64,000 nt of DNA from a virus: the IMG/VR virus record IMGVR_UViG_3300044638_004964, positions 1 to 64,000 of that record; one strand, given 5' to 3'. The translations under genes were made by a program, and so were the position numbers. The notes below the pieces were generated by a model. The model was not told the DNA's origin. It worked only from the letters and a program-made list of their open reading frames with translations, and did no database searches. Positions 6,452 through 33,760 of this stretch are shown here, one piece after another. Position 1 is the stretch's first letter, and each line of letters starts with the position of its first letter.

Positions 6452-6523
6452 GGCCCCATAGTTAAATGGATATAACAACTTTCTTCTAAAAAGTGATTAG
6501 GGGTTCGATTCCTCTTGGGGCTA
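6452..6523 (+). tRNA. tRNA-Arg(UCU), CCA not encoded
   Basis: Acceptor GGCCCCA/TGGGGCT; D stem GTTA/TAAC; anticodon stem ACTTT/AAAGT with loop CT-TCT-AA; T arm AGGGG-TTCGATT-CCTCT. Confidence 0.93.
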
Positions 6524-7903: not shown

Positions 7904-8253
7904 GGGCCAGTAAAGGTATCGACAGGTAAAATAGATATAAACTGCATTAACTGGTTAATCGAATGGCCAGTATAAAAATCGATTAAAACTGTTAATTGGC
8001 GAAGTAACTCTCGCTCTCGCTGCCTAATTAATTAGGTAATGAGTGGGGCGGCATGAGCCTTATTACCAAATCATGCTGACGCAGATAATCTGATATGGTA
8101 GCCTTACCAGACATAAATAGGGATGATGATTGTACTCAATCTGACTCAGATAATTCTGATAGCTTTGTTAATTGTGCGATAACAACTAACTAATAATGTA
8201 GAAGTTTATATTGATGTTTATTCTGGACAGGGGTTCGACTCCCCTCTGGTCCA
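7904..8253 (+). ncRNA. ssrA: tmRNA, tag peptide (A)GEVTLALAA at 7998..8027
   Basis: 5' GGGCCAG...TCGAC; 3' GGACAGGGGTTCGACTCCCCTCTGGTCCA; acceptor stem with G3-U wobble (Ala identity); tag ORF ending LAA-stop. Confidence 0.92.
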
Positions 8254-8267
8254 CTGTTTTGGTTTGA

Positions 8268-21633: not shown

Positions 21634-22696
21634 TGTTGTAGGTCCAATCAATCAATTGGGATATGGTATAACATCTTTAAATTTAGTTAAATCTCTGGCA
21701 AAAAAAACTCCAGTTTGTTTATGGGTTATCGGTCAACCGCAAGTAACAAATCAAAGCGATGCTGAATTAATATCAACATGCTTGCAAAATAGAAACTATT
21801 TAGATTTTGATGCTCCATGTATAAAAATATGGCATCAGAATGATATGACACAATTTGCCGGTAAAGGGAAAAGAATAGGTTTTCCTATTTTTGAGCTTGA
21901 TGAATTTAACGAGCTAGAAAAACACCACCTAAACTCATTAGATAGTATATTTGTTTGTTCTAACTGGGCAAAAAATGTTGTACTAAATAATATTAACATA
22001 AGTCCTGACAATGTTTATGTTATACCATTGGGTGTTGATCAAAAAATATTCAAAATTGATGAAACTAAACAGCAAAACGATAAAACTATTTTTTTAAACT
22101 GCGGAAAATGGGAAGTTAGAAAAGGTCATGATATTCTATATAAAATCTTTAACATGGCGTTTGAAAAATCCGACAACGTAGAACTTTGGATGCTTTGTGA
22201 AAATCCCTTTCTAAAGCCAAACGAACAACAAGAATGGATAGATTTATACCTAAATTCAAAATTGGGAGATAAAATTAAGATAATTCCACGCCAGCAAACT
22301 CAGCAAGAAGTGTATAATATAATGAGAAATGCTGATTGTGGAGTATTTCCATCTAGAGCAGAGGGCTGGAATTTAGAACTATTAGAAATGATGGTCAGTG
22401 GTAAAAGTGTAATAACGACAAATTATTCTGCCCACACGGAATTTTGCACAAGATCAAACGCTAGACTTGTCGATATACAGGATGTGGAACTGGCCTATGA
22501 CGGCAAATGGTTTCATGGAAAGTGCGGAAACTGGGCAAAAATTGACGATCAAGCTATAGAACAATTTGTTAACCACTTAAGAGAAGTCCACACCCTAAAA
22601 CAGTCGAACTCCTTAGTATTAGATAACTCTTCTCTTAAGAATATTGAATATTTTAATTGGGATAATTCAGCAGACTTGGTAATCAAATATGTTTAA
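21626..22696 (+). CDS. glycosyltransferase family 4 (GT-B)
   Basis: IPLGVD, RKGHD, PSRAEGWNLELLEMM. Confidence 0.88.
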   Translation: MINVVGPINQLGYGITSLNLVKSLAKKTPVCLWVIGQPQVTNQSDAELISTCLQNRNYLDFDAPCIKIWHQNDMTQFAGKGKRIGFPIFELDEFNELEKHHLNSLDSIFVCSNWAKNVVLNNINISPDNVYVIPLGVDQKIFKIDETKQQNDKTIFLNCGKWEVRKGHDILYKIFNMAFEKSDNVELWMLCENPFLKPNEQQEWIDLYLNSKLGDKIKIIPRQQTQQEVYNIMRNADCGVFPSRAEGWNLELLEMMVSGKSVITTNYSAHTEFCTRSNARLVDIQDVELAYDGKWFHGKCGNWAKIDDQAIEQFVNHLREVHTLKQSNSLVLDNSSLKNIEYFNWDNSADLVIKYV

Positions 22697-23057
22697 CTTC
22701 TTCAAGAAAAAACAAATAAAAACCGAAGAAATTATCGTTAGTGATAATAAATTACCAATAGTCTCCATAACATATAACATCAATCAAAAGCTTGAAACTA
22801 GTGTTGATATTTTAATGGATGATTATGGTGCTGAATCTATAAATGCTATATGCAAACTCCTAGACACTCTCTCTAGTGATAGTTTTTATATAGAAACCGT
22901 CAATATGCTAAAGCAAGGGCTTATTAACGATGATCAGCAAGAAATATTGCTAACTATTTTAACCCACGTTGGTCAACAGGCCAGATACAAAATAATACAG
23001 TCCCATAAAGATAGTACAAAGGACGAGCCTTGCATTAAACCTTCCGATATGCTATAA
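22689..23057 (+). CDS. hypothetical protein
   Basis: ORF track; overlapping. Confidence 0.55.
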   Translation: MFNFFKKKQIKTEEIIVSDNKLPIVSITYNINQKLETSVDILMDDYGAESINAICKLLDTLSSDSFYIETVNMLKQGLINDDQQEILLTILTHVGQQARYKIIQSHKDSTKDEPCIKPSDML

Positions 23058-23076
23058 TGGCAAAAGGAGTTCCGGT

Positions 23077-23508
23077 ATGCAAAAGTATACTAAAAAAATT
23101 GGATGGCAAAAGTACGAAGATTTTCTAGAAAAGCAATTCTCATCACCGCTACTAAATACAATTATACAAAACATCGCTATGCAGAATTTGACTTTAGAGG
23201 ACGATGATGAAGAAAGTGAAATGGATGATATTGATACTGAAGAAAAAGATAGCTCTCATTTAAATATGATGCTTCCAGTTACAAGGCAATTAATAGAAGA
23301 TGTTACAATGCTATCTAGTTTTGACTGTTGGATAGCTCATACAAACTTTGATATAACTCCCAGAATAAAGGATAAATTAAATTCTATACCCGGAATAGAG
23401 TTACTCAAAATTTGTAGTAGATATAGATTCTTTATAGGAATAGGTCAGATGTTTGATTTCAAAGAAGTAAGAAATAAAATTGAAGAAAGCTTAATAAAAG
23501 GAGATTGA
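23077..23508 (+). CDS. hypothetical phage protein
   Basis: AAGGAG SD; CWIAHTNFDIT...GIE.L...SRYRF. Confidence 0.6.
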   Translation: MQKYTKKIGWQKYEDFLEKQFSSPLLNTIIQNIAMQNLTLEDDDEESEMDDIDTEEKDSSHLNMMLPVTRQLIEDVTMLSSFDCWIAHTNFDITPRIKDKLNSIPGIELLKICSRYRFFIGIGQMFDFKEVRNKIEESLIKGD

Positions 23509-23509
23509 T

Positions 23510-23980
23510 ATGAGTTGCATTGATGATAAAATTGAAGGCGCACTAAAAGATACAAATATAGTCAAAATAATGAATAGGGCTTCCAAGAGGTTTAAGGGTC
23601 AGCTAGATAATGATACTATCTATACTTGCCAAATAAATGCTCTCTGGAAGGCTTTCTTGAACCATGATCCAAATAAAGCGGCTAAATTTACAACATATTT
23701 GTATAATGGTGTTTTTATAGAATGTATGAAAGAGATAAAGTTTAAGAATAAGTCTAAAAGATACGGTGGCAAATTGCATGATAATATCTCTGATAATAAA
23801 GATCCATTTTTGATGGTCGATATAATGGACGAGCTTAACGAAGAAGAAAAGCAAATCTTTGTCGATAAAGCAAGCAATATGACTATTTCAGAAATGGCTC
23901 AAAAGTATGGCACTAACAGGGAAAGTACTAGAAGAAAAGTGCATAAAATTATCCGTAATATTAATAAAAAATTCGCATAG
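23510..23980 (+). CDS. phage sigma70-family factor
   Basis: Region-2-like ALWKAFLNHDPNKAAKFTTYL; region-4 HTH MTISEMAQKYGTNRESTRR. Confidence 0.75.
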   Translation: MSCIDDKIEGALKDTNIVKIMNRASKRFKGQLDNDTIYTCQINALWKAFLNHDPNKAAKFTTYLYNGVFIECMKEIKFKNKSKRYGGKLHDNISDNKDPFLMVDIMDELNEEEKQIFVDKASNMTISEMAQKYGTNRESTRRKVHKIIRNINKKFA

Positions 23981-24064
23981 TTGTGTATTAATATCTAGGA
24001 ACAGGACTTTGTAAGGACATGGATATGACAAATTTACTAAATTATTTTACTAGGAGAAATATCT

Positions 24065-24688
24065 ATGTCAGATACAACAGCCAAAGCTGGTGCAAAAAAC
24101 AACAACGGTGGAACAATTGTTCATGCCGGTAATGTTAGTGGTAACACCAAAAATCTAGAACTAAATAATATTAATGCTTCAGTTAACAACGGTTATGGCT
24201 CAAAAGTATACGTAAATACAGCTACCAGTAATGGAACTAGTGACCCTTTCGGTATCGCTGTTGCCAAAGATGGCGGTGGTGGAATTGCTTACAATCCCGC
24301 TCCCGGCACAAACTATATAATGGTAAACGCTGGCGACAACGCTGCTAAAATTAATAATGTAACATCAACAGTACTAACCATCCCCGGCGGTGCTACCAAT
24401 GTAACAATGAATAAACTTGTTACAACTCGTCAACTTGGTACATACGCCACTGCCGCTTTCGACATTCTCGCTGTACCAAATGGTGGTAAGATTGTTCCCG
24501 GTCGAACTAAGGGTAGCGGTGCTGGCACACTTGTTAGATACGTTAAGGCCGAAGATGGCACTACAGCCGCAACAGACGCTGCTGCAAGTGTTGGCCGTGC
24601 GGTTCCCGGCAATCTAACCTACTTCTTTGGTTATCTATCCGGTCCATCGACTGTTTCTTATAAAGCTAAGAACACTTACGAGTCTTGA
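24065..24688 (+). CDS. Gly/Ala/Thr/Asn-rich probable virion protein
   Basis: AGGAG SD; composition typical of structural proteins; flanked by the GTGTAT motif and a 3' hairpin. Confidence 0.5.
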   Translation: MSDTTAKAGAKNNNGGTIVHAGNVSGNTKNLELNNINASVNNGYGSKVYVNTATSNGTSDPFGIAVAKDGGGGIAYNPAPGTNYIMVNAGDNAAKINNVTSTVLTIPGGATNVTMNKLVTTRQLGTYATAAFDILAVPNGGKIVPGRTKGSGAGTLVRYVKAEDGTTAATDAAASVGRAVPGNLTYFFGYLSGPSTVSYKAKNTYES

Positions 24689-24706
24689 TATTTGTAATAG
24701 ATTAAA

Positions 24707-24737
24707 GGTGCCTCATAGCATTAAGTTGTGAGGCACC
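24707..24737 (+). terminator. stable hairpin (terminator or mRNA stabiliser)
   Basis: GGTGCCTCATAGC-ATTAA-GTTGTGAGGCACC; no U-tract on the + strand. Confidence 0.55.
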
Positions 24738-24765
24738 AATAATCGCTTTCGCTCTTGGAGAAATC

Positions 24766-25359
24766 ATGATAGATTTTAAAAATCCAGAGTATATTACTCT
24801 TATTTTAAGTTTACTTGGTGGTTTAGGCACCTTTTTGAGTTTGGTATGGGTAAAAGTTGTTGTCCCAGTTATTAAACTTATGAATGGTCAAGAGCTAGTA
24901 AGTAAAGGAATAAATGATATTAAAAAGGAACTTACCACAAATGGTGGAAATAGCCTAAAAGATGCTGTAATTGATTTAAGAACTACTTGTCATAGAATGG
25001 AAATGCGCCAAAAAATTATCGAACAAAGAACAAAAGCCGCTTTACATTATAGTTTAGTATCCTTGTTTGAAACCGATAGTAAAGGCAGAATAACTTGGTC
25101 TAATGAAAACTTCTGTAAACTAACATCTGATAAGCTTCAACATGCCGAAGGATTTGATTGGGTTTTATACATTGACGAGGACGAAAGAGAAGAATTCCTA
25201 ACAGAATTTAAATCTTGCCTAGATATGAATCGCAAATTTATGCGAATTAGCAAAAACTGTGATGGTAAACTTGTTCAGATGGTAGGATATCCCTACAAGA
25301 TTAATGAACATGAACATGGTGGTTTTTTAGTCAGTGTCTCAGAACTCAAAGAGGTATAA
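24766..25359 (+). CDS. membrane-anchored PAS-domain protein
   Basis: N-terminal TM; ELTTNGGNSLKDAV; PAS pattern LFETDSKGRITWSNENFCKLT...GFDWVLYIDEDERE. Confidence 0.75.
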   Translation: MIDFKNPEYITLILSLLGGLGTFLSLVWVKVVVPVIKLMNGQELVSKGINDIKKELTTNGGNSLKDAVIDLRTTCHRMEMRQKIIEQRTKAALHYSLVSLFETDSKGRITWSNENFCKLTSDKLQHAEGFDWVLYIDEDEREEFLTEFKSCLDMNRKFMRISKNCDGKLVQMVGYPYKINEHEHGGFLVSVSELKEV

Positions 25360-25360
25360 T

Positions 25361-25570
25361 ATGTTAGACTCTAAAGCTTTCGAATTTAATAAAAATGACT
25401 TTTTATCATTGGCCAAAAATGCTTTATTAGTAGGTTTGGCTGCTGTTTTAACTTATGTTGGTCAGAATTTATCTCACATCGATCTTGGCGCTGGTACAGC
25501 TTTAGTTGTTCCAGTTATAACAATTATGATTGATTCAGCAGTAAAATGGGTCAGAGATAACACAAAGTAA
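25361..25570 (+). CDS. holin-like two-TM protein
   Basis: 69 aa, two TM segments, charged C-terminus; GAGG SD. Confidence 0.5.
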   Translation: MLDSKAFEFNKNDFLSLAKNALLVGLAAVLTYVGQNLSHIDLGAGTALVVPVITIMIDSAVKWVRDNTK

Positions 25571-25580
25571 GGAATATGTA

Positions 25581-26498
25581 ATGTTTAAAACTCCCAATGA
25601 GCTATTAAAAGCTTACAAAGATGGTTTCAATGGCTCTTGGTGCGATCCAGAGGATGTGGCGAAACTCTTAGGGGAATTGCCACACCCTCTATTCGGCGCA
25701 TCTGCCTATAATTTATCTGGCACAGGCGAAGGTAAGCTCGCTCTATTATTCAAGTCAATTATGAAACATGATCCAGATTTTGGGCGGTCTGAAAGACAAG
25801 TCCAAGGGGATTGTGTGAGCCATGCAACGCGAAATAGCGTTGATATTACACGATGCTGCGAAATAATAGGTGGCGAAAAAGAAGAATTTGTTGCCAAAGG
25901 AGCGACAGAAGCTATTTATGGATCAAGAGGTTTTGGTGGAGAAGGAATGAGTTGTTCTGCTGCCGCAAGATTTGTTAATAAAACTGGCGGCATATTACTA
26001 CGCAAAAAATATGGCGAAATAGATCTATCAGAGTATAGTGCTATTGGTGGCAAATGGGGAAGTCGCGGAGTTCCAGAAGAATTAGTAAAAGAAGCTCAAA
26101 AACATCAAGTAAAAACAATAAGTTTAGTTAATACCGTCGCCCAAGCTAGAGATGCTCTAGCCAATGGTTACTCAATTTCTGTGTGTAGTAATTCTGGATT
26201 TTCTTCTCGTAGAGATAAGCATGGAATAGCTAAAAGAAGTGGAAATTGGGGCCACGCGATGGCATGGGTAGGAATGGACGATACACGCGAAATACATAAT
26301 GAAACATTATTTTTGGTCCAAAATAGTTGGGGAATTTGGAATGGTGGTGATAAACGTCACGATCAACCAGATGGAAGTTTTTGGATTAGACAAAGCGATG
26401 CTGAAGAAATGTTGGCCGCTAATGGTTCTTGGGTATTTAGTGATGTAGACGGTTTTCCTGCACGTAAAATAACTTGGACAATTAACGAAGTATTTTAA
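25581..26498 (+). CDS. papain-like (C1) cysteine protease
   Basis: QVQGDCVSHA (Gln, Cys), GHAM (His), QNSWG (Asn). Confidence 0.85.
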   Translation: MFKTPNELLKAYKDGFNGSWCDPEDVAKLLGELPHPLFGASAYNLSGTGEGKLALLFKSIMKHDPDFGRSERQVQGDCVSHATRNSVDITRCCEIIGGEKEEFVAKGATEAIYGSRGFGGEGMSCSAAARFVNKTGGILLRKKYGEIDLSEYSAIGGKWGSRGVPEELVKEAQKHQVKTISLVNTVAQARDALANGYSISVCSNSGFSSRRDKHGIAKRSGNWGHAMAWVGMDDTREIHNETLFLVQNSWGIWNGGDKRHDQPDGSFWIRQSDAEEMLAANGSWVFSDVDGFPARKITWTINEVF

Positions 26499-26519
26499 CA
26501 GTTAAATAAAGGGTTTAAT

Positions 26520-26804
26520 ATGTCAACAGATTATTCAAAAATACAACTTAGAAGAGCAACAGAAGCTCAGTTTATAGCCGCAAATACTATGCTGGCATCT
26601 GGCGAACCCTCGTTTGCGACAGATACAAAAATAATTAAAGTAGGTGACAGCGTTACAGCTTGGCAAAACTTGCCAAATACAGTTATTAGCAATGTTAGCG
26701 GCATAACAAACGCTTCTGGGGTATATAATCTAGTAGCTATGAGTCAATCAGATTATGACGGACTAGGCTCATATAACCCTAAAACCATTTACTTTATAAG
26801 ATAA
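26520..26804 (+). CDS. short tail-fibre-associated protein (Mtd/hyaluronidase N-terminal-like)
   Basis: IQLRR...LASGEP..ATDT..IKVGD...W..LP; C-terminal MSQSDYDGL...TIYFI. Confidence 0.7.
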   Translation: MSTDYSKIQLRRATEAQFIAANTMLASGEPSFATDTKIIKVGDSVTAWQNLPNTVISNVSGITNASGVYNLVAMSQSDYDGLGSYNPKTIYFIR

Positions 26805-26809
26805 TAATT

Positions 26810-28933
26810 ATGCTTAAAATTGGTAGCACAACAGTAACTAAATCCTATATTGGATCAGTAGAATTATCAGCTATTTATGCTGGTAATAATTTGATTTATT
26901 CGTCTGTTCCAACAACAACTAGTGCGCCAACCACAACAACGACTACTACGGCAACGCCAACAACAACAACAACTACTGCACCTACTACCACCACGACCAC
27001 CACAACAACATCAACCACCACCACCACCACGACCACCACAACAACATCAACCACCACCACCACCACGACCACCACAACAACATCAACCACCACCACGACC
27101 ACCACAACAACATCAACCACTACTACCACCACCACTACCACTACCACCACTACAACTACGGCAGAGCCAACAGTTGACCCGTTTTTCAGCAACGTCGCCC
27201 TATTGCTACATATGGACGGCAACTTAAGTACGTTTACTGACTCGTCTTCCACTCCGAAGACAGTAAATGCCATTGGTACAGCTACGCAATCCACAACACA
27301 AAGTAGGTGGGGCGGTAAGAGTGGTTATTTTGGCGGCGATGGCGACCGTCTTACCATTCCCGATGCGACTTCGTTTTATTTCGGAAGCGGAGATTATGTT
27401 GTAGAAGCGTGGCTGTATATCCCCATCCTAAATACTGAAGGCGGCGGGTATTTTTTCTCTCAGTCAGCAAACATATCAGATAATAACAACAGGCAACATG
27501 CTTTTAGCGTTAATTCTACTGGCTTGTCTGTGTATTTCACTACAAGCGGGGGTAACGATAACTCTATCTCATTCTCAGCCACAATTCCTACTAACCAATG
27601 GTTTCACGTAGCGTTTAGTCGAAGTAGTCAAATGCTTAGTGCTTATTTAAACGGTGAGCGCGTAGGCGAGCCTATTTCGAACAACGCGACTTATTACAAT
27701 AGTTCAGCAAATGTATGTGTTGGGTCTTTTGGAGAATACGCACAAAATGGATACGAATATTTAGATTTTACGGGCTTCATAGATGACTTGCGTGTTACTA
27801 CAGGGAGCAACAGGGGTTACGTTGGAGCTACAATCACGGTTCCAACAGCCGCGTTCCCAGATTCCGCCCCTCCTACTACTACCACTACAACTACAACTAC
27901 GACCACGGCAGATCCAACAATTGGCGACCCGCTGTTTAGCAGCGTGTCACTTCTTCTCCACATGGACGCCTCGCCATTTGTTGACTCGTCTGCAAATGAT
28001 GTGGACATTGAAAGCAACAGCGTATCGGCAGACACTTCTATTAAGAAATTTGGCAACGCTAGTATGCAGGGGAACTCCAGCTACCTATCTATTTTAGATG
28101 CGTCAGCAGTAGATTTCGGCAATTACGGAACCTTTACCATCGAAATGTGGTATCGCAGAAGCGCATCGCAGTCGGCAGATGACACCCTTTATCAGACGTT
28201 TACCAATACAGGATCGAATTCGGGGCATATAGTCGCTGTGAATACGTTAGGACAGCTTATCGTATATGAGCGCGAGCGTTATTTAGTACAGAACGCTGCG
28301 GCTTTTCCAAACACCGATCAGTGGTATCACTTCGCGATCTCCGTCCAAGCTGGGGCTTTGTCGGCATATGTAGATGGCGCACTCGTTGCCACCGGCTCGT
28401 TCACATCAAACGGCGGTGCTGGAACGATGTCTACTGATCGGAATTGGATTGGGGGAAACATTTACGGCGGGAGACTCGCGGGCTGGATTGACGATTTTCG
28501 CGTCACCAAGAATCACGCCCGCACCATTACAGTACCCACAGCCCCATACCCAGATTTCGGCCCGACAACAACAACCACAACAACCACAACAACGACTGCC
28601 GCTCCCGCTGTGTCGCTATCAACACCATACGGTGCTGTTACTGGCTCTGGCACAGTGTCATCTAAATGGACATGGCAGTCGGGTTCTGGATTTTCGGAAG
28701 GAACTAGTGCAAAACTTCTTACAGCGAATAGCAGTATCACTTTACAAGCAACTCTCACTCAAACCGGGGGCGGAAACTGCGATAGAGGCGAGACTCTAAG
28801 TCTGGGGATTTATTCCGCCGCAGATGTTCGGGTCAGGACTATGTCGGGCAGCGCAGAAACTCTCACGGCAGGTCAATACATTTTTATGGAACTAGACTGC
28901 GCACACGCAAGAGCGGAGGTGTGGGTTGTTTAA
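26810..28933 (+). CDS. fibre/receptor-binding protein with two LamG (ConA-like) modules joined by poly-Thr linkers
   Basis: Two DP.FS.V.LLLHMD...E.W...W.H.A...G.IDD.RVT modules; three Thr tracts. Confidence 0.85.
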   Translation: MLKIGSTTVTKSYIGSVELSAIYAGNNLIYSSVPTTTSAPTTTTTTTATPTTTTTTAPTTTTTTTTTSTTTTTTTTTTTSTTTTTTTTTTTSTTTTTTTTTSTTTTTTTTTTTTTTTAEPTVDPFFSNVALLLHMDGNLSTFTDSSSTPKTVNAIGTATQSTTQSRWGGKSGYFGGDGDRLTIPDATSFYFGSGDYVVEAWLYIPILNTEGGGYFFSQSANISDNNNRQHAFSVNSTGLSVYFTTSGGNDNSISFSATIPTNQWFHVAFSRSSQMLSAYLNGERVGEPISNNATYYNSSANVCVGSFGEYAQNGYEYLDFTGFIDDLRVTTGSNRGYVGATITVPTAAFPDSAPPTTTTTTTTTTTADPTIGDPLFSSVSLLLHMDASPFVDSSANDVDIESNSVSADTSIKKFGNASMQGNSSYLSILDASAVDFGNYGTFTIEMWYRRSASQSADDTLYQTFTNTGSNSGHIVAVNTLGQLIVYERERYLVQNAAAFPNTDQWYHFAISVQAGALSAYVDGALVATGSFTSNGGAGTMSTDRNWIGGNIYGGRLAGWIDDFRVTKNHARTITVPTAPYPDFGPTTTTTTTTTTTAAPAVSLSTPYGAVTGSGTVSSKWTWQSGSGFSEGTSAKLLTANSSITLQATLTQTGGGNCDRGETLSLGIYSAADVRVRTMSGSAETLTAGQYIFMELDCAHARAEVWVV
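26993..27118 (+). repeat. tandem repeat, 4 copies of ACGACCACCACAACAACATCAACC(ACC)n, inside the poly-Thr tract
   Basis: Copies start at 26993, 27029, 27065 and 27095 (periods 36, 36, 30). Confidence 0.9.
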
Positions 28934-29330
28934 TCACATAGCTTTGCCTCCTAAACCAACCAGCTTTCTGCCTCGCGGTGTTGCAACTGATCCGCTAACT
29001 GTTCCACCGCTACAAGACGTTCCTACGGCTGAAAACGGATTGTTTTCTGGCTCATGTGCTAAAGACTTGTACGGCGAGTCATGTACAAACGTAATCTGGT
29101 ATCCTCCCGGTGGCTGGATGGATTGGCACACAAATAGCAATAATCCCGGCAAGCGATTATATGTATCATGGAGTGAAACGGGTAAAAGTGGGATGAGATG
29201 GCTTAACAAGAAAAATATTGTTGTTGAAGATCCAGATAAACCCGGATGGAACATAAGAATTTTTAATACACCAGAATGGCATATGGTATATGCAGATTGC
29301 TGGCGATTTAGTATAGGATGGAAACTATAA
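28926..29330 (+). CDS. cupin / 2OG-Fe(II) oxygenase-like protein
   Basis: YPPGGWMDWHTN, WH and RFSIG pattern. Confidence 0.5.
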   Translation: MFNHIALPPKPTSFLPRGVATDPLTVPPLQDVPTAENGLFSGSCAKDLYGESCTNVIWYPPGGWMDWHTNSNNPGKRLYVSWSETGKSGMRWLNKKNIVVEDPDKPGWNIRIFNTPEWHMVYADCWRFSIGWKL

Positions 29331-29521
29331 TGAAACATTTAGCAGAATTTTTAATTTGTGGAACCATTGGCACCTACTGTGTTTTACGGTTCGTATCTCT
29401 GATGCCTCGCGTGATCGCAGAAGCGCAGACATTAGTACGTGTAGCTACAGAGCGCCGTCAAGAAATTGAAGAATTATCAGATGATATAGATAACTCTAAA
29501 ATACATGATTATGGTTGGTAA
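29330..29521 (+). CDS. small membrane protein
   Basis: TAATG overlap; one hydrophobic helix. Confidence 0.45.
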   Translation: MKHLAEFLICGTIGTYCVLRFVSLMPRVIAEAQTLVRVATERRQEIEELSDDIDNSKIHDYGW

Positions 29522-29543
29522 CTAAAATACAAAGGAGATAATT

Positions 29544-29762
29544 GTGGCAATAACAACAACAGACGTAGTAACAAATGTGGTTCCCGGTAATGAAGTAATT
29601 AAAAACGCTTCATGCGTAGTATATTGTTTTAATACTGGAAATTATGGATCAGTACAAAGTACATTCCAAGGATCATTCACATATGATGAATTAGAAGATA
29701 AATATACAAGTCGTTTTGATAACATTAGCTACTACAATGCCGTAGATGGTGGTGGACCATGA
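29544..29762 (+). CDS. hypothetical protein
   Basis: AAGGAG SD, GTG start. Confidence 0.55.
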   Translation: MAITTTDVVTNVVPGNEVIKNASCVVYCFNTGNYGSVQSTFQGSFTYDELEDKYTSRFDNISYYNAVDGGGP

Positions 29763-30061
29763 GATATCTATTATTAATTTTATTACTTGCTGGATGTTCA
29801 ACAAATAATTGTAAATCTCTTCCAAATACAGAAATTACAGAAATGTATTCTTCTTATGTTGAAGAATGGAAGCAGCAAGCACAAACATCTTTCAAAGAAG
29901 CTGAAGATAAAATCTTTGTTGTAAACCCATTACCAAAACCAGATATTAATGATGGTACAAATCCAGATCCCGCAAAATGTATTTGCAAAGGCACAGGAAT
30001 TATTGTCCAAGGAGATGGACACAAAACAGCATGTCCGTTTCACAGTAAGTCACAAAAGTAA
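29759..30061 (+). CDS. lipoprotein with a Cys/His C-terminal motif
   Basis: Lipobox LLAGC; CICKGTG...GDGH..CPFH. Confidence 0.7.
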   Translation: MRYLLLILLLAGCSTNNCKSLPNTEITEMYSSYVEEWKQQAQTSFKEAEDKIFVVNPLPKPDINDGTNPDPAKCICKGTGIIVQGDGHKTACPFHSKSQK

Positions 30062-30075
30062 TTTAGGAGATTAAA

Positions 30076-30393
30076 ATGAATATTGAGCTTGTTCTTAGGA
30101 TTTTAGCAATCGTTGCCGGTTTATTATTAGTAGCATCTTGCTATTGGGTAGATTTTAATTATCTTTTAGCTAAAATGCTATTAAAGAAAAAACCAGTAGT
30201 AGAAAAAGACGTTGAAGTTGTTGTAGATACTGGTGATCAATTTTTACACATCATTGATCTATGGTATAAGCTACGTGCCCAGTGTGTAGATGCTAAACTA
30301 GATTCTGCCACACAAAAGCTAGACGAAGTTTTTCCACTTTTAAACAAGACTGAAGTCACAATAACCCCTGCTCCGGTAGCAAAGGTAGAATAA
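30076..30393 (+). CDS. membrane protein
   Basis: AGGAG SD; N-terminal TM. Confidence 0.6.
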   Translation: MNIELVLRILAIVAGLLLVASCYWVDFNYLLAKMLLKKKPVVEKDVEVVVDTGDQFLHIIDLWYKLRAQCVDAKLDSATQKLDEVFPLLNKTEVTITPAPVAKVE

Positions 30394-30394
30394 C

Positions 30395-30853
30395 ATGGTT
30401 AAAAAATTAATTGCGGCACTATTAATTGCCTATGGTATTTTTGGTTTAGGTTTTCTTAAAAATATACCTATTCCAAAACCAAAACCAGAACCAGTTGTAA
30501 TATTAAACGTTGATAAGCCTAATCAAGAGGTAATAGACTCTGTTAAAAACTTATCATCTTTGGTTACTGATCCATTAGATAGAGCCAAAATAGCTATTTT
30601 TAATTATGAGTTTGCCACCAGAGTAAAAAATTATAATACAGATTTGCAAAAAGTAAATGATGTTTATACCTTGGCTGGCAAAACTTTTTTTAAAAATGAA
30701 TTGGTTGGTAAATATAATGGACTTGGTGAGGGCGTAGTCAAACTAATAACAAGTCTTGTTTCAGATGATAATCACGACCTATCTCAAGAAGGAAAAGACA
30801 AAATTAGCGAACATTTTATGGGGCTAGCTTGGTCTTTACTACAAAAAGAGTAA
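30395..30853 (+). CDS. membrane-anchored protein with Pro-rich linker
   Basis: Signal anchor followed by IPIPKPKPEP. Confidence 0.6.
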   Translation: MVKKLIAALLIAYGIFGLGFLKNIPIPKPKPEPVVILNVDKPNQEVIDSVKNLSSLVTDPLDRAKIAIFNYEFATRVKNYNTDLQKVNDVYTLAGKTFFKNELVGKYNGLGEGVVKLITSLVSDDNHDLSQEGKDKISEHFMGLAWSLLQKE

Positions 30854-30857
30854 TAAA

Positions 30858-31496
30858 ATGAATTACGACATAAGCAAGGTAAAAGATATTTTTAAGTCTG
30901 TTTTTTCAGACATGGGATATGAGACTAGTGGAATGTCTTTTAAATGCCCATCACCACTTGGCATATCAATTGCCGATTCAGCAGACGCAATTGATATAAA
31001 CTTTACAAATAGTAAAAACTTACCCGTTGCAACCGTTAGGAAATTAATCAAGTTTAATTTAGATATTCTTGGTGTTAATTTAGGACCAACTGGTGGAGTA
31101 ATCAAAATAAAGTTCTTCCCAGATATCAAATTTGATTATAATGGGTCTGTCAAGTTTGGTGATTGCTCAAATAATATGGCTTATGAACTAATTTCTCAGG
31201 AAATCGATGATGAGTATGGCGATCCAGAAAGAAAAAAAATTGCTCAAAGATGCTTGCAATATGGTAGTGAATGGGCTACAATAGTCAGTGCCTCACAAAC
31301 AGAGCCAGTGACTTATTCAGAACGAGAGAAAAGAACACTAAGAAAACAATGCTATAATTTCATTTATGAAAATATAAAGAATGACAAAGAGATAGAATGC
31401 AAGTTTGTTATCTTAGGCGTTCTATTTTTAAACTTTGTTCTCCCAGTGATAATTGGTTGGATAGTCACGAAGATATTGAATCACTGGTTTAAATAA
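30858..31496 (+). CDS. protein with C-terminal membrane anchor
   Basis: Hydrophobic C-terminus FVILGVLFLNFVLPVIIGWIV. Confidence 0.55.
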   Translation: MNYDISKVKDIFKSVFSDMGYETSGMSFKCPSPLGISIADSADAIDINFTNSKNLPVATVRKLIKFNLDILGVNLGPTGGVIKIKFFPDIKFDYNGSVKFGDCSNNMAYELISQEIDDEYGDPERKKIAQRCLQYGSEWATIVSASQTEPVTYSEREKRTLRKQCYNFIYENIKNDKEIECKFVILGVLFLNFVLPVIIGWIVTKILNHWFK

Positions 31497-31534
31497 TCAA
31501 TCTTACCACGATTTAACGAAACGATAGGGATAAT

Positions 31535-33760
31535 ATGCAAGTTCAGAAGAGAAATGGAAATCTTGAAAAATATAACGTAGAAAAAATTCATAAAGTGGTA
31601 GAGTGGGCGATCAAGGATATCAATAATGTTTCTTGGTCAGATATAGAAATGAACGCCAAGCTTTCTCTTAGAGATGGCATCACAACACAAGAAATTCACC
31701 AAATTCTTGTCAAGTCAGCAAATGATCTGACTTCTCCAGCAAAGCCAAACTATCAGTATGTTGCTTCTAGATTATTGAATATGTCTTTACGTAAAGACCT
31801 GTGGGATAGATACGATAATCCACCATCACTATCTAAGCATATTAAATCAAATATTGAAAAGGGAGTTTATGACCCAGTATTATTTGAAAAGTGGTCAAAG
31901 GAGGATATCAAAGAAATAGAGTCCTGCATAGATCACGATAGAGATTATTTATACACATATGCTGGTCTACAGCAAATGATAGATAAATATCTTGTAAAGA
32001 ATAGAGCTACTGGCGAGATGTATGAAACTCCACAGTTTGCTTATATGGCTATTGCTATGGCTTTATTCAACGTTGTTGATGAAGTTAAGGATGCCTATGA
32101 ATGCTTCTCAACATTTAAAATTAATCTTCCAACCCCAATTATGGCTGGAGTTAGAACTAAAATCAAGCAATTCGCTAGTTGCGTACTAGTTGACGTTGAA
32201 GATGATTTAGATTCTATCTTTTCTAGTATTCATGCTGTTGGTAAATATACTGCCCGCCGTGCGGGAATAGGATTAAATGTTGGGCGAATTCGCCCAATTA
32301 ATTCTAGCATAAGGGGCGGTGAAGTTATTCATACTGGTCTTATCCCTTATCTTAAGATATTTGAATCAACGGTTAAGGCCACTAGTCAGAATGGTATTCG
32401 TGGAGGTTCAGCCACTGTACATATTCCATTTTGGCATTATGAAATTGAAGATGTAATGGTTCTTAAGAATAACGCTGGAACAGACGATAATAGAGTACGA
32501 AAGCTAGATTATTCCGTTCAGTTTAATAAGTTATTTTATGAACGACTAATTAAGAATGAAGATATTACACTATTTAGTCCAGAAGAAACTGGTGGACTAT
32601 ATAGCTCTATGAATAATAACGAAGATTTCAAGAAGCTTTATGAAAAGTATGAGAATTCTCGAAATATTAAAATGAAAAAGAAAATCAACGCTAGAAAGCT
32701 AGCAGAAATTTTCACTAAGGAAAGATTAGAAACTGGGCGAATCTATGTTATGAATATAGATAATGCTAATGAGCATGGATCATGGGATGCTCCAGTTTAT
32801 ATGAGTAATCTTTGTCAAGAAATTATTCATCCCACAAAGCCAATTAATTCTATTGAGGATAAAGAGGGCGAGATTGGTATTTGTATTTTATCAGCACTTA
32901 ATCTAACAGAACTAGATAGTGATGATGATATTGCTAATGCTTGCAGAATAGCTGTAAGAACTCTTGAGTCAGTTATAGATTATCAAGATTATCCAGTAGC
33001 TGCTGGAGAAAATTTCACAAAAAATCGTAGATCATTAGGTATTGGTATTACCAATTTAGCTGGTTTCTTAGCTAAGAATAAGTTAAAGTATGATGATCCA
33101 AATACTCTACAGCTAGTACATTCTACTATGGAAAAGATTCAATGGAATCTATTAAATGAATCATGCCGTTTGGCAGCAGAGCTTGGTTCTTGTAATAAGT
33201 TTAATGAAACAAAATATTCTAGAGGTTTACTACCGCTGGATTGGTATAAAAAAACAGTTGACGAACTGGTTAAGCCAGAGTATAATATGGATTGGGAGGG
33301 TCTAAGAGCCAGAATTAAAGAATATGGACTAAGACACTCAACCCTAACCGCTATAATGCCATGTGAGTCCTCTAGCGTTATCCAGAACAGCACAAATGGC
33401 ATTGAGCCTGTCAGAAGTCTACTTTCTTACAAGAAGGCTAAAAACGGCGTTCTAAAGCAGTTGGTGCCAAACTATGCGTCACGTAAAAACTATTATTCAT
33501 TAGCTTGGGAAATGGAAGATAATAAAGCTATACTTAATATATGTGCAATTCTACAAAAATTCGTAGATATGAGTATTAGCGTAAACTTATACTATAATTA
33601 TGCTCACTTTCCAGAAGGTAATATACCCTTGAGTGTTTTGATCAAAGATCAAATTTATGGTTTTAAATATGGTATTAAAAATTTTTACTATTGCAACACT
33701 CCAGATGGAGATGGAGCAACGGAGAAAGAAACCTGTGAAGGTGGATCGTGTGCAATTTAA
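31535..33760 (+). CDS. nrdA: class Ia ribonucleotide reductase alpha subunit
   Basis: ATP cone (VQKRNG), QFASC, SNLCQE, MPCESSS, C-terminal CEGGSC. Confidence 0.97.
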   Translation: MQVQKRNGNLEKYNVEKIHKVVEWAIKDINNVSWSDIEMNAKLSLRDGITTQEIHQILVKSANDLTSPAKPNYQYVASRLLNMSLRKDLWDRYDNPPSLSKHIKSNIEKGVYDPVLFEKWSKEDIKEIESCIDHDRDYLYTYAGLQQMIDKYLVKNRATGEMYETPQFAYMAIAMALFNVVDEVKDAYECFSTFKINLPTPIMAGVRTKIKQFASCVLVDVEDDLDSIFSSIHAVGKYTARRAGIGLNVGRIRPINSSIRGGEVIHTGLIPYLKIFESTVKATSQNGIRGGSATVHIPFWHYEIEDVMVLKNNAGTDDNRVRKLDYSVQFNKLFYERLIKNEDITLFSPEETGGLYSSMNNNEDFKKLYEKYENSRNIKMKKKINARKLAEIFTKERLETGRIYVMNIDNANEHGSWDAPVYMSNLCQEIIHPTKPINSIEDKEGEIGICILSALNLTELDSDDDIANACRIAVRTLESVIDYQDYPVAAGENFTKNRRSLGIGITNLAGFLAKNKLKYDDPNTLQLVHSTMEKIQWNLLNESCRLAAELGSCNKFNETKYSRGLLPLDWYKKTVDELVKPEYNMDWEGLRARIKEYGLRHSTLTAIMPCESSSVIQNSTNGIEPVRSLLSYKKAKNGVLKQLVPNYASRKNYYSLAWEMEDNKAILNICAILQKFVDMSISVNLYYNYAHFPEGNIPLSVLIKDQIYGFKYGIKNFYYCNTPDGDGATEKETCEGGSCAI

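Follow-up and report, generated by a model that had tools for sequence, protein, structure and literature searches.

To our knowledge, the tailed phages of bacteria that have been studied well all rely on a peptidoglycan hydrolase for host lysis. In the S-R-Rz/Rz1 cassette of phage lambda, the gene for a small protein with two transmembrane (TM) helices lies directly upstream of that for a leaderless enzyme, and genes for an inner-membrane protein and a lipoprotein follow downstream. The same arrangement is found at positions 24,766 to 31,496 of the viral DNA analyzed here (hereafter, the window), which comprises the first 64 kb (64,000 nucleotides) of IMGVR_UViG_3300044638_004964, a linear IMG/VR virus record of 105,961 bp, except that the enzyme encoded at this locus is a papain-type protease (Table 1). 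The genes surrounding this protease form a module carried by hundreds of environmental phage contigs, for which we found no description in the literature. On the basis of gene content and conservation, we suggest that a large clade of uncultured aquatic phages of low GC content lyses its hosts by means of this protease-based module with its redox partner, a reading to which we attach somewhat better than even confidence.

The papain-type nature of the 305-residue enzyme emerges both from its residues and from its predicted fold. Gln73, Cys78, His225, and the Asn248-Ser-Trp-Gly motif are invariant across 22 diverse homologues and occur in the order of the papain family. The score against the Pfam profile Peptidase_C1 (PF00112) is 20.1 bits (E 7e-4), which narrowly misses the cut-off of 20.7, and relatives lie over or at this profile, with 25.8 bits for P0260 and a precomputed PF00112 match for P0061. 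Searches of the PDB by sequence, with the protease and with its profile, returned nothing significant, and the fold search alone succeeded: the AlphaFold2 model, having a predicted template modelling score (pTM) of 0.81, gave 181 Foldseek matches in the PDB at E<=1e-3, with nothing but C1 peptidases among those listed. The best one is xylellain (3OIS, E 7e-8), followed by many cathepsins and procathepsins and by Cwp84 of C. difficile, and the top fold matches in BFVD are proteins of uncultured phages named "Peptidase_C1". Sequence and model together identify the protein as a genuine, active-looking cysteine peptidase of the papain fold (C1A-like). It is also the most conserved product of its neighborhood, with 84% identity versus 47-63% for the neighbors. 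Two homologue searches yielded 1503 and 1494 homologues, the latter number from a survey of 1.8 billion cluster representatives, of which the best 150 matches were examined.

These 150 representatives are informative on the site of action. The protease of the window has no signal sequence; in 13 of the 150, an N-terminal TM helix and a domain resembling the downstream membrane protein TM152 stand ahead of the protease, and in five (P0165, with E 4e-11, P0218, P0233, P0162, and P0191) the Cys knuckle of the downstream lipoprotein family stands behind it. Tat (twin-arginine translocation) signals of the form RRxFL are present on four homologues and a lipobox on one, and the charge bias puts the fused protease outside the cytoplasm. 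Because of these gene fusions and export signals, we conclude that, as far as sequences can tell, the protease homologues act outside the cytoplasm together with TM152 and the knuckle/thioredoxin protein. The same site is probable for the leaderless enzyme of the window, which, if acting outside, would require an exit route, and the adjacent two-TM protein is the obvious candidate for it. Among 20 long homologues, no fusion of the protease to a peptidoglycan-binding domain was found. A BFVD entry from an uncultured tailed phage (A0A6J5MXS7, 484 residues, rank 16 of the fold matches), named "Peptidoglycan binding-like", contains a domain with a C1-like fold (E 7.8e-5) and may thus combine an enzyme of the papain fold with a domain for wall binding.

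The occurrence of the neighboring genes was assessed in 83 related IMG/VR loci, scored with family profiles built for this analysis, and in 25 whole protease-bearing phage records, 13 of which are at least 90% complete. TM152 was found in 70 of the 83 loci and, as one copy, in all 25 records, including all 13 near-complete ones. Its family aligns with the N-termini of the fused proteases (hhalign 98.7%, E 1.6e-16, 114 columns), its predicted topology is C-out in 18 members versus two, and it has no relative in Pfam, the PDB, or the ESM-Atlas. Since TM152 is fused to the protease in other phages and accompanies it in every one of the 25 records, it can be read as a likely membrane dock or partner of the protease. 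The possibility that TM152 might act in trans as an I29-like propeptide was also considered, and nothing supports it. The Cys-knuckle family, in turn, is present in 73 of the 83 loci. A lipobox occurs in only a subset of its members, the window copy included, and most members are devoid of it; the knuckle relatives of loci L051, L171, and L005 carry a C-terminal thioredoxin domain (WCGPC, 32.7-41.9 bits, above the Pfam cut-off), whereas the window lipoprotein consists of the Cys knuckle only. We suggest that the lipoprotein is probably a thiol-redox partner of the protease. The third conserved neighbor, TM105, was found in 64 of the 83 loci, is predicted to be C-in in 53 of these 64 by the positive-inside rule, and matches no family in Pfam or PHROG.

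The initial annotation of this DNA, whose open reading frames (ORFs) are all present where it placed them, had pointed to a lipoprotein and three membrane-anchored proteins after the fiber genes and had regarded them as a spanin-like set. The four proteins do exist; their description as spanin-like does not survive the fusion of TM152 to the protease in other phages, the thioredoxin domains of the knuckle relatives, and the restriction of the lipobox to a subset of the family. The PHROG Rz-like match of the lipoprotein (E 0.039) covers the signal peptide only, and TM152 and the lipoprotein do not have the makeup of a two-component spanin of the Rz/Rz1 type. By appearance, TM152 is a dock and the Cys-knuckle protein a redox partner, rather than Rz/Rz1.

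Five genes are kept together in these loci, namely those for the protease, the lipoprotein family, TM105, TM152, and a small two-TM protein, and they are found in three layouts. In type A (about 40 loci, the window included) the order is sigma-like gene, Gly/Asn-rich 207-residue gene, PAS gene, two-TM gene, protease, zero to six fiber genes, p72, lipoprotein, TM105, TM152, tail-anchored protein, and RNR. Type B (about 40 loci, all PAS-free) shows the order protease, lipoprotein-family gene, 58-residue two-TM gene, TM105, and TM152, and in type C TM105 and TM152 precede the protease, a small TM protein, and the knuckle protein. The holin-like gene always travels with the set, although two unrelated families occupy its slot. 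In the window this slot is filled by a protein of 69 residues, the gene for which starts 1 nucleotide past the stop codon of the PAS gene, at the same ATG chosen by gene callers, and ends 10 nucleotides ahead of the protease start. The protein has the features of the holin class, being small and TM-bearing, with a charged C-terminus and a gene beside that of a candidate lytic enzyme, and the charge bias around the TM helices of the two-TM proteins predicts an N-in/C-in hairpin. Its 42 homologues, every one labelled "hypothetical", are confined to this phage clade. In type B relatives the same slot is filled by a 58-residue two-TM protein; homology between the two families was ruled out (hhalign probability 0.2%), and PHROG holin families are the best matches, albeit weak (best E 4.3e-4), for all five type B proteins tested. 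On topology and position, the 69-residue hairpin is probably holin-like. The central part of the initial annotation, that is, a coherent membrane/periplasm module around a real papain-type protease beside a holin-like two-TM protein, is therefore upheld.

The initial annotation had also remarked that neither a muramidase nor an amidase is encoded in the window, and had proposed to look for a canonical endolysin in the rest of the genome. Fourteen Pfam families of peptidoglycan hydrolases were searched in six frames (PF00959, PF01510, PF01464, PF13539, PF01551, PF01520, PF05838, PF00182, PF00877, PF05257, PF01183, PF08291, PF18013, and PF07486); control genomes were unmatched for PF05838 and PF00182, so the negatives for these two weigh little. 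Across the whole 106-kb record and four relatives, among them the complete, terminally repeated genome G001 of 173 kb, none of the 14 families exceeded its cut-off, and the sole matches under the cut-off were two fragments of 13-16 bits, both in the relative G004. Hence the absence noted for the window also applies to the entire record and to relatives with complete genomes, and the rest of the genome yielded no canonical endolysin above the Pfam cut-offs of these families. Seven of the 14 families were also negative in 19 to 28 additional records that carry the protease and reach 244 kb in size, 11 to 13 of them at least 90% complete. The protease, for its part, carries no recognised peptidoglycan-hydrolase domain, such as an endolysin would have. 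By profile evidence, this is a phage lineage without a recognisable peptidoglycan hydrolase.

As for the PAS protein, its fold, which the initial annotation had proposed to check, was confirmed by AlphaFold2 and Foldseek. The Pfam PAS profile gives 20.5 bits, just below the cut-off of 22.6, and matches at E<=0.01 were obtained for 10 of 26 family members (best 7.9e-5). The model, with a mean predicted local distance difference test score (pLDDT) of 81, consists of a helix at residues 7-94 followed by a five-strand PAS domain; its best Foldseek match is NifL (2GJ3, E 4e-5), followed by LOV domains, with SrrB also among the best, and the TM-score of the model on its target is 0.6-0.7 (0.67 for the best NifL/LOV matches). 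According to the family alignment, the motif E-x3-NGG-x-S-x-KD, which sits in the long helix region, and Cys151 are both invariant, and the positive-inside rule predicts that the PAS-domain end faces the cytoplasm (C-in) in 21 of 26 members. No cofactor-binding site or motif was recognised in the PAS domain, and the LOV-type NCRFL motif is absent from the sequence. The five-strand fold is shared with the FAD (flavin adenine dinucleotide)-binding PAS of NifL, with LOV domains, and with the heme PAS of SrrB; the phage protein differs from these sensors in having a single-pass membrane tether and no output domain. The NGG motif had been taken as a mark of small membrane proteins of phage lysis regions, which is not corroborated: when residues 1-95 were used to look for shorter proteins, only four came up, probably fragments, and the idea of the N-terminal module as a separate small-protein family was rejected. 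The gene is present in 6 of the 25 protease-bearing records (2 of the 13 that are at least 90% complete), and it is missing from about half of the 83 loci, including all those of type B or type C layout. It is a clade-specific accessory of the module and not a general gate.

How might such a module bring about lysis? The protease, lacking a signal sequence, would build up in the cytoplasm until the adjacent two-TM hairpin, as its topology and position suggest, opens the inner membrane late in infection. The enzyme would then meet its periplasm-facing partners, with TM152 in the inner membrane serving as the dock, while the thioredoxin-linked Cys-knuckle lipoprotein might keep or make the catalytic Cys reduced in the oxidising periplasm or, alternatively, reduce the substrate. 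Finally, the enzyme would cleave some peptide or protein on which the cohesion of the envelope depends, the candidates being an S-layer, the peptide links of peptidoglycan, or protein tethers between wall and outer membrane. In this sub-clade only, timing may be modulated by the PAS protein and TM105, both of which are predicted to face the cytoplasm. This reading is based on an active-looking protease, on its extracytoplasmic association with its neighbors, on the thioredoxin domains in the family of its redox partner, on its core status, on the occupied holin slot, and on the fact that no alternative lysin was found; indeed, universal presence, high conservation, and the inteins described below suggest a core function.

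Several points weigh against protease-based lysis. The absence of a lysin was established with Pfam profiles, which would miss a hydrolase that is divergent or of a novel fold, the CheckV completeness of the record containing the window is 67%, and the analysis is computational throughout. The 69-residue protein matches no family in Pfam or PHROG. Moreover, we know of no member of the C1A family that cuts peptidoglycan or serves as a phage lysin, and endolysins are usually variable, whereas this protease is unusually conserved. The chromosomal-looking homologues of Pirellulales (see below) imply that the protease family also has a non-phage role. Finally, the clan-CA lysins named in a review (PMC10318531) belong to CHAP, NlpC/P60, Amidase_5, and the pseudomurein endoisopeptidases PeiW/PeiP, and C1A is not among them.

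Different explanations, based on the same genes, should therefore be weighed. The periplasmic protease complex might have a non-lytic function in the envelope, trimming surface or periplasmic proteins of the host while something as yet unrecognised accomplishes lysis; it might destroy receptors to prevent superinfection or the adherence of progeny to debris, or process exported phage proteins. We regard this as unlikely, even though the fusions and topologies place the protease and its partners outside the cytoplasm, tail-fiber genes have been inserted repeatedly in or beside the block, and the lone homologues on Planctomycete chromosomes show that the family has non-lytic uses. In phage T5, moreover, the gene for a receptor-blocking lipoprotein lies beside that for the receptor-binding protein. 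Exclusion functions, however, are normally accessory and patchy, whereas the set described here is universal (25/25), highly conserved, and a host of inteins; in addition, it is always accompanied by a holin-like gene, and the searches of 13 near-complete genomes turned up no other lysin. A comparably low probability is assigned to the proposal of the initial annotation that lysis is timed through the PAS protein, which would gate the holin in response to a ligand or a redox signal. What stands of it is a real PAS fold, closest to those of flavin- or heme-binding sensors, in a membrane-tethered protein whose gene ends next to the two-TM gene; its invariant Cys151 and NGG motif suggest that its function is specific and conserved, and its predicted cytoplasmic orientation would suit an antiholin-like regulator. 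What is not supported is the gating itself: the link to the two-TM gene is one of adjacency, no cofactor-binding residues were identified, members of the family score under the Pfam PAS cut-off, and the gene is missing in 19 of the 25 records, including 11 with a completeness of at least 90%. Being mostly missing, it cannot belong to the basic mechanism, so gating could at best be a feature of one sub-clade.

Slightly less probable still, in our view, is that the wall is cut by a divergent, unrecognised hydrolase and that the protease module, as an accessory cutter of tethers, performs the last step, like a spanin or a disruptin. The module does combine a periplasmic protein anchored in the inner membrane with a lipoprotein of the outer-membrane type in this phage, no Rz/Rz1-type spanin is otherwise visible, and profiles cannot exclude novel hydrolase folds; on the other hand, the six-frame search returned nothing above the cut-off of any of the 14 families, an envelope-spanning bridge is not conserved, since most knuckle members have no lipobox, and the protease directly follows the holin-like gene, which is the usual position of an endolysin. 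By far the least probable explanation is a protease for virion (prohead) maturation or for a cytoplasmic takeover of the host. The lack of a signal peptide and the very high conservation would fit it, as would the absence of a Peptidase_S78 prohead protease from five records, a search that left other prohead protease families outside its scope; but homologues carry Tat signals, lipoboxes, N-terminal membrane anchors, and fusions to exported domains, and the gene is embedded among membrane proteins, outside the minus-strand structural module (64.5-106 kb).

Table 1. Features of the protease locus and of other parts of the window (positions are those of the window).
Feature	Position	Strand	Remarks
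tRNA-Arg(TCT) gene	6452-6523
tmRNA gene	7904-8256		Rfam RF00023, 96.5 bits, full length
Upstream gene pair	23510-24688		156-residue protein (sub-threshold Sigma70_r4) and 207-residue Gly/Asn/Thr-rich protein without family
Membrane-tethered PAS protein, 197 residues	24766-25359	+	N-terminal TM, long helix, C-terminal PAS fold, no output domain
Holin-like two-TM protein, 69 residues	25361-25570	+	Both termini rich in K/R; loop between the two TM helices uncharged
Leaderless papain-fold (C1A-like) cysteine peptidase, 305 residues	25581-26498	+	Gln73, Cys78, His225, Asn248-Ser249-Trp250-Gly251
Fiber block	26520-29521	+	94-residue Mtd_N/Phage_tail_C stub; 707-residue poly-Thr protein with two Laminin_G_3; 134-residue ORF; 67-residue TM ORF
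Soluble protein p72, 72 residues	29544-29762	+	Found in 21 loci and in type C layout
Exported Cys-knuckle lipoprotein, 100 residues	29759-30061	+	Lipobox LLLAGC; invariant C-terminal C-x-C-x-G-x-G...GDGH...CP
TM105	30076-30393	+	N-terminal TM; soluble part predicted cytoplasmic; core member
TM152	30395-30853	+	N-terminal TM, Pro/Lys-rich linker, helical domain of ~110 residues predicted periplasmic
Tail-anchored protein, 212 residues	30858-31496	+	C-terminal TM; in 18 loci, a subset of same-layout relatives

The protease family shows two further peculiarities. Inteins, mostly with LAGLIDADG homing endonucleases, interrupt 50 of the 150 best representative homologues (for instance P0121, P0124, P0127, P0128, P0142, and P0143), seven of which contain two. 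The four insertion points are each at, or no more than two residues from, a catalytic residue: TGD|Cys78, His225|Cys, HAM|Cys (two residues past His225), and Asn248|Ser249. At TGD|Cys78, the catalytic Cys also serves as the +1 nucleophile of splicing. The copy in the window is intein-free. Inteins at catalytic residues mark the protease as a core gene of these phages. The second peculiarity concerns lone, leaderless homologues in four contigs of metagenome-assembled genomes (MAGs) of Pirellulales (L177-L180), with a GC content of 64-68% and 32-48% identity (47-48% in L177-L179). These loci look chromosomal, one being near gatC and two near a large multi-TM transporter, and two of them share synteny; all of them lack the partner genes known from the phages.

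The fiber block of the window, which the initial annotation had treated as an insert in the cassette, is a variable insertion and not part of the core module: its GC content is 43% versus about 33% in the surroundings, and the fiber content at the same position differs or is absent in related loci, close relatives included. It looks like a swappable host-range cassette between the protease and the partner genes. The soluble protein p72 has no match among family profiles and accompanies the module in part of the clade. The pair of genes upstream of the PAS gene, one of them sigma-like, occurs together in 61 related loci, ahead of the module in one layout and behind it in another. A scan of positions 22,500-32,000 for promoters and terminators revealed no difference from shuffled sequence.

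Concerning the phage as a whole, the GC content of the window is about 34%, and the structural genes, including those for giant tail proteins, lie beyond it on the minus strand. The region is without resemblance to any deposited phage and without a cultured relative; indeed, a DNA search of positions 24,000-31,900 against deposited phages gave as its sole match the RNR gene of cyanophages, and tblastn of the 305-residue protease against 50,697 phage records gave no match. The window also harbors genes for a transfer RNA (tRNA) and for a transfer-messenger RNA (tmRNA), the latter indicating a bacterial host. The attempt to identify this host through matches in genome collections returned only MAGs, and their bins (SAR202, Dehalococcoidia, Flavobacteriales, and Promethearchaeota) are mutually inconsistent; the contigs concerned are probably mis-binned phage contigs. 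One of them, L171 (VFHP01000007.1, 152,655 bp, labelled as a SAR202 MAG), contains a complete type A module adjoining RNR and has the look of an almost complete phage genome that was placed in a bacterial bin.

Taken further, protease-based lysis leads to a broader proposal, which we advance tentatively and with slightly less than even confidence. The papain-type protease, its dock, and its redox partner might represent an undescribed class of lysis effectors that replaces peptidoglycan hydrolases throughout a large and abundant clade of uncultured aquatic phages of 100-244 kb and that may attack protein and not glycan; in one sub-clade, the PAS protein might be the first holin regulator with a sensor domain. 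If this were true, the set of lysis enzymes would gain one class, the envelope of an abundant aquatic host would be expected to have a hitherto unknown point of weakness, and a new kind of lytic enzyme would be supplied. In any case, the gene fusions name concrete partner proteins of the protease.

A final point concerns how this module relates to known systems. Xylellain and the other C1A peptidases (cathepsins, Der p 1, and Cwp84) have the same fold as the phage protease (Foldseek E 7e-8 to 1e-4) and share with it the catalytic Gln, Cys, His, and Asn-Ser-Trp-Gly. In xylellain and the phage protease alike, the catalytic Gln is preceded by some 70 residues of N-terminal extension, like that of the short bacterial forms. 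The identity to those enzymes is only 12-18%, and the phage protease is distinguished from them by the lack of both an I29 propeptide and a signal peptide, by its being encoded by a phage with dedicated genes for membrane and redox partners, and by the inteins lodged at catalytic residues in many homologues. Phages do use papain-like Cys-His catalysis on wall peptides, as exemplified by the clan-CA lysins (PMC10318531), which makes this chemistry suitable for lysis; those lysins belong to other families (two of which, PF05257 and PF00877, were among those searched for and not found here), have other topologies, and none is reported to have a dedicated thioredoxin-type partner or a membrane dock. 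With respect to holin-endolysin-spanin cassettes, the enzyme of the present module is a C1A-type protease in place of a glycosidase, an amidase, or a known peptidoglycan endopeptidase. Where lambda has its Rz/Rz1 genes, the module has those for a putative docking domain and a protein of the Cys-knuckle/thioredoxin family. The fused, N-terminally anchored proteases of other phages, some of which have a small two-TM gene beside them (as in L090), parallel the signal-anchor-release (SAR) endolysins and the pinholin known from phage 21 and P1 Lyz. Thiol chemistry also matters in the activation of P1 Lyz.

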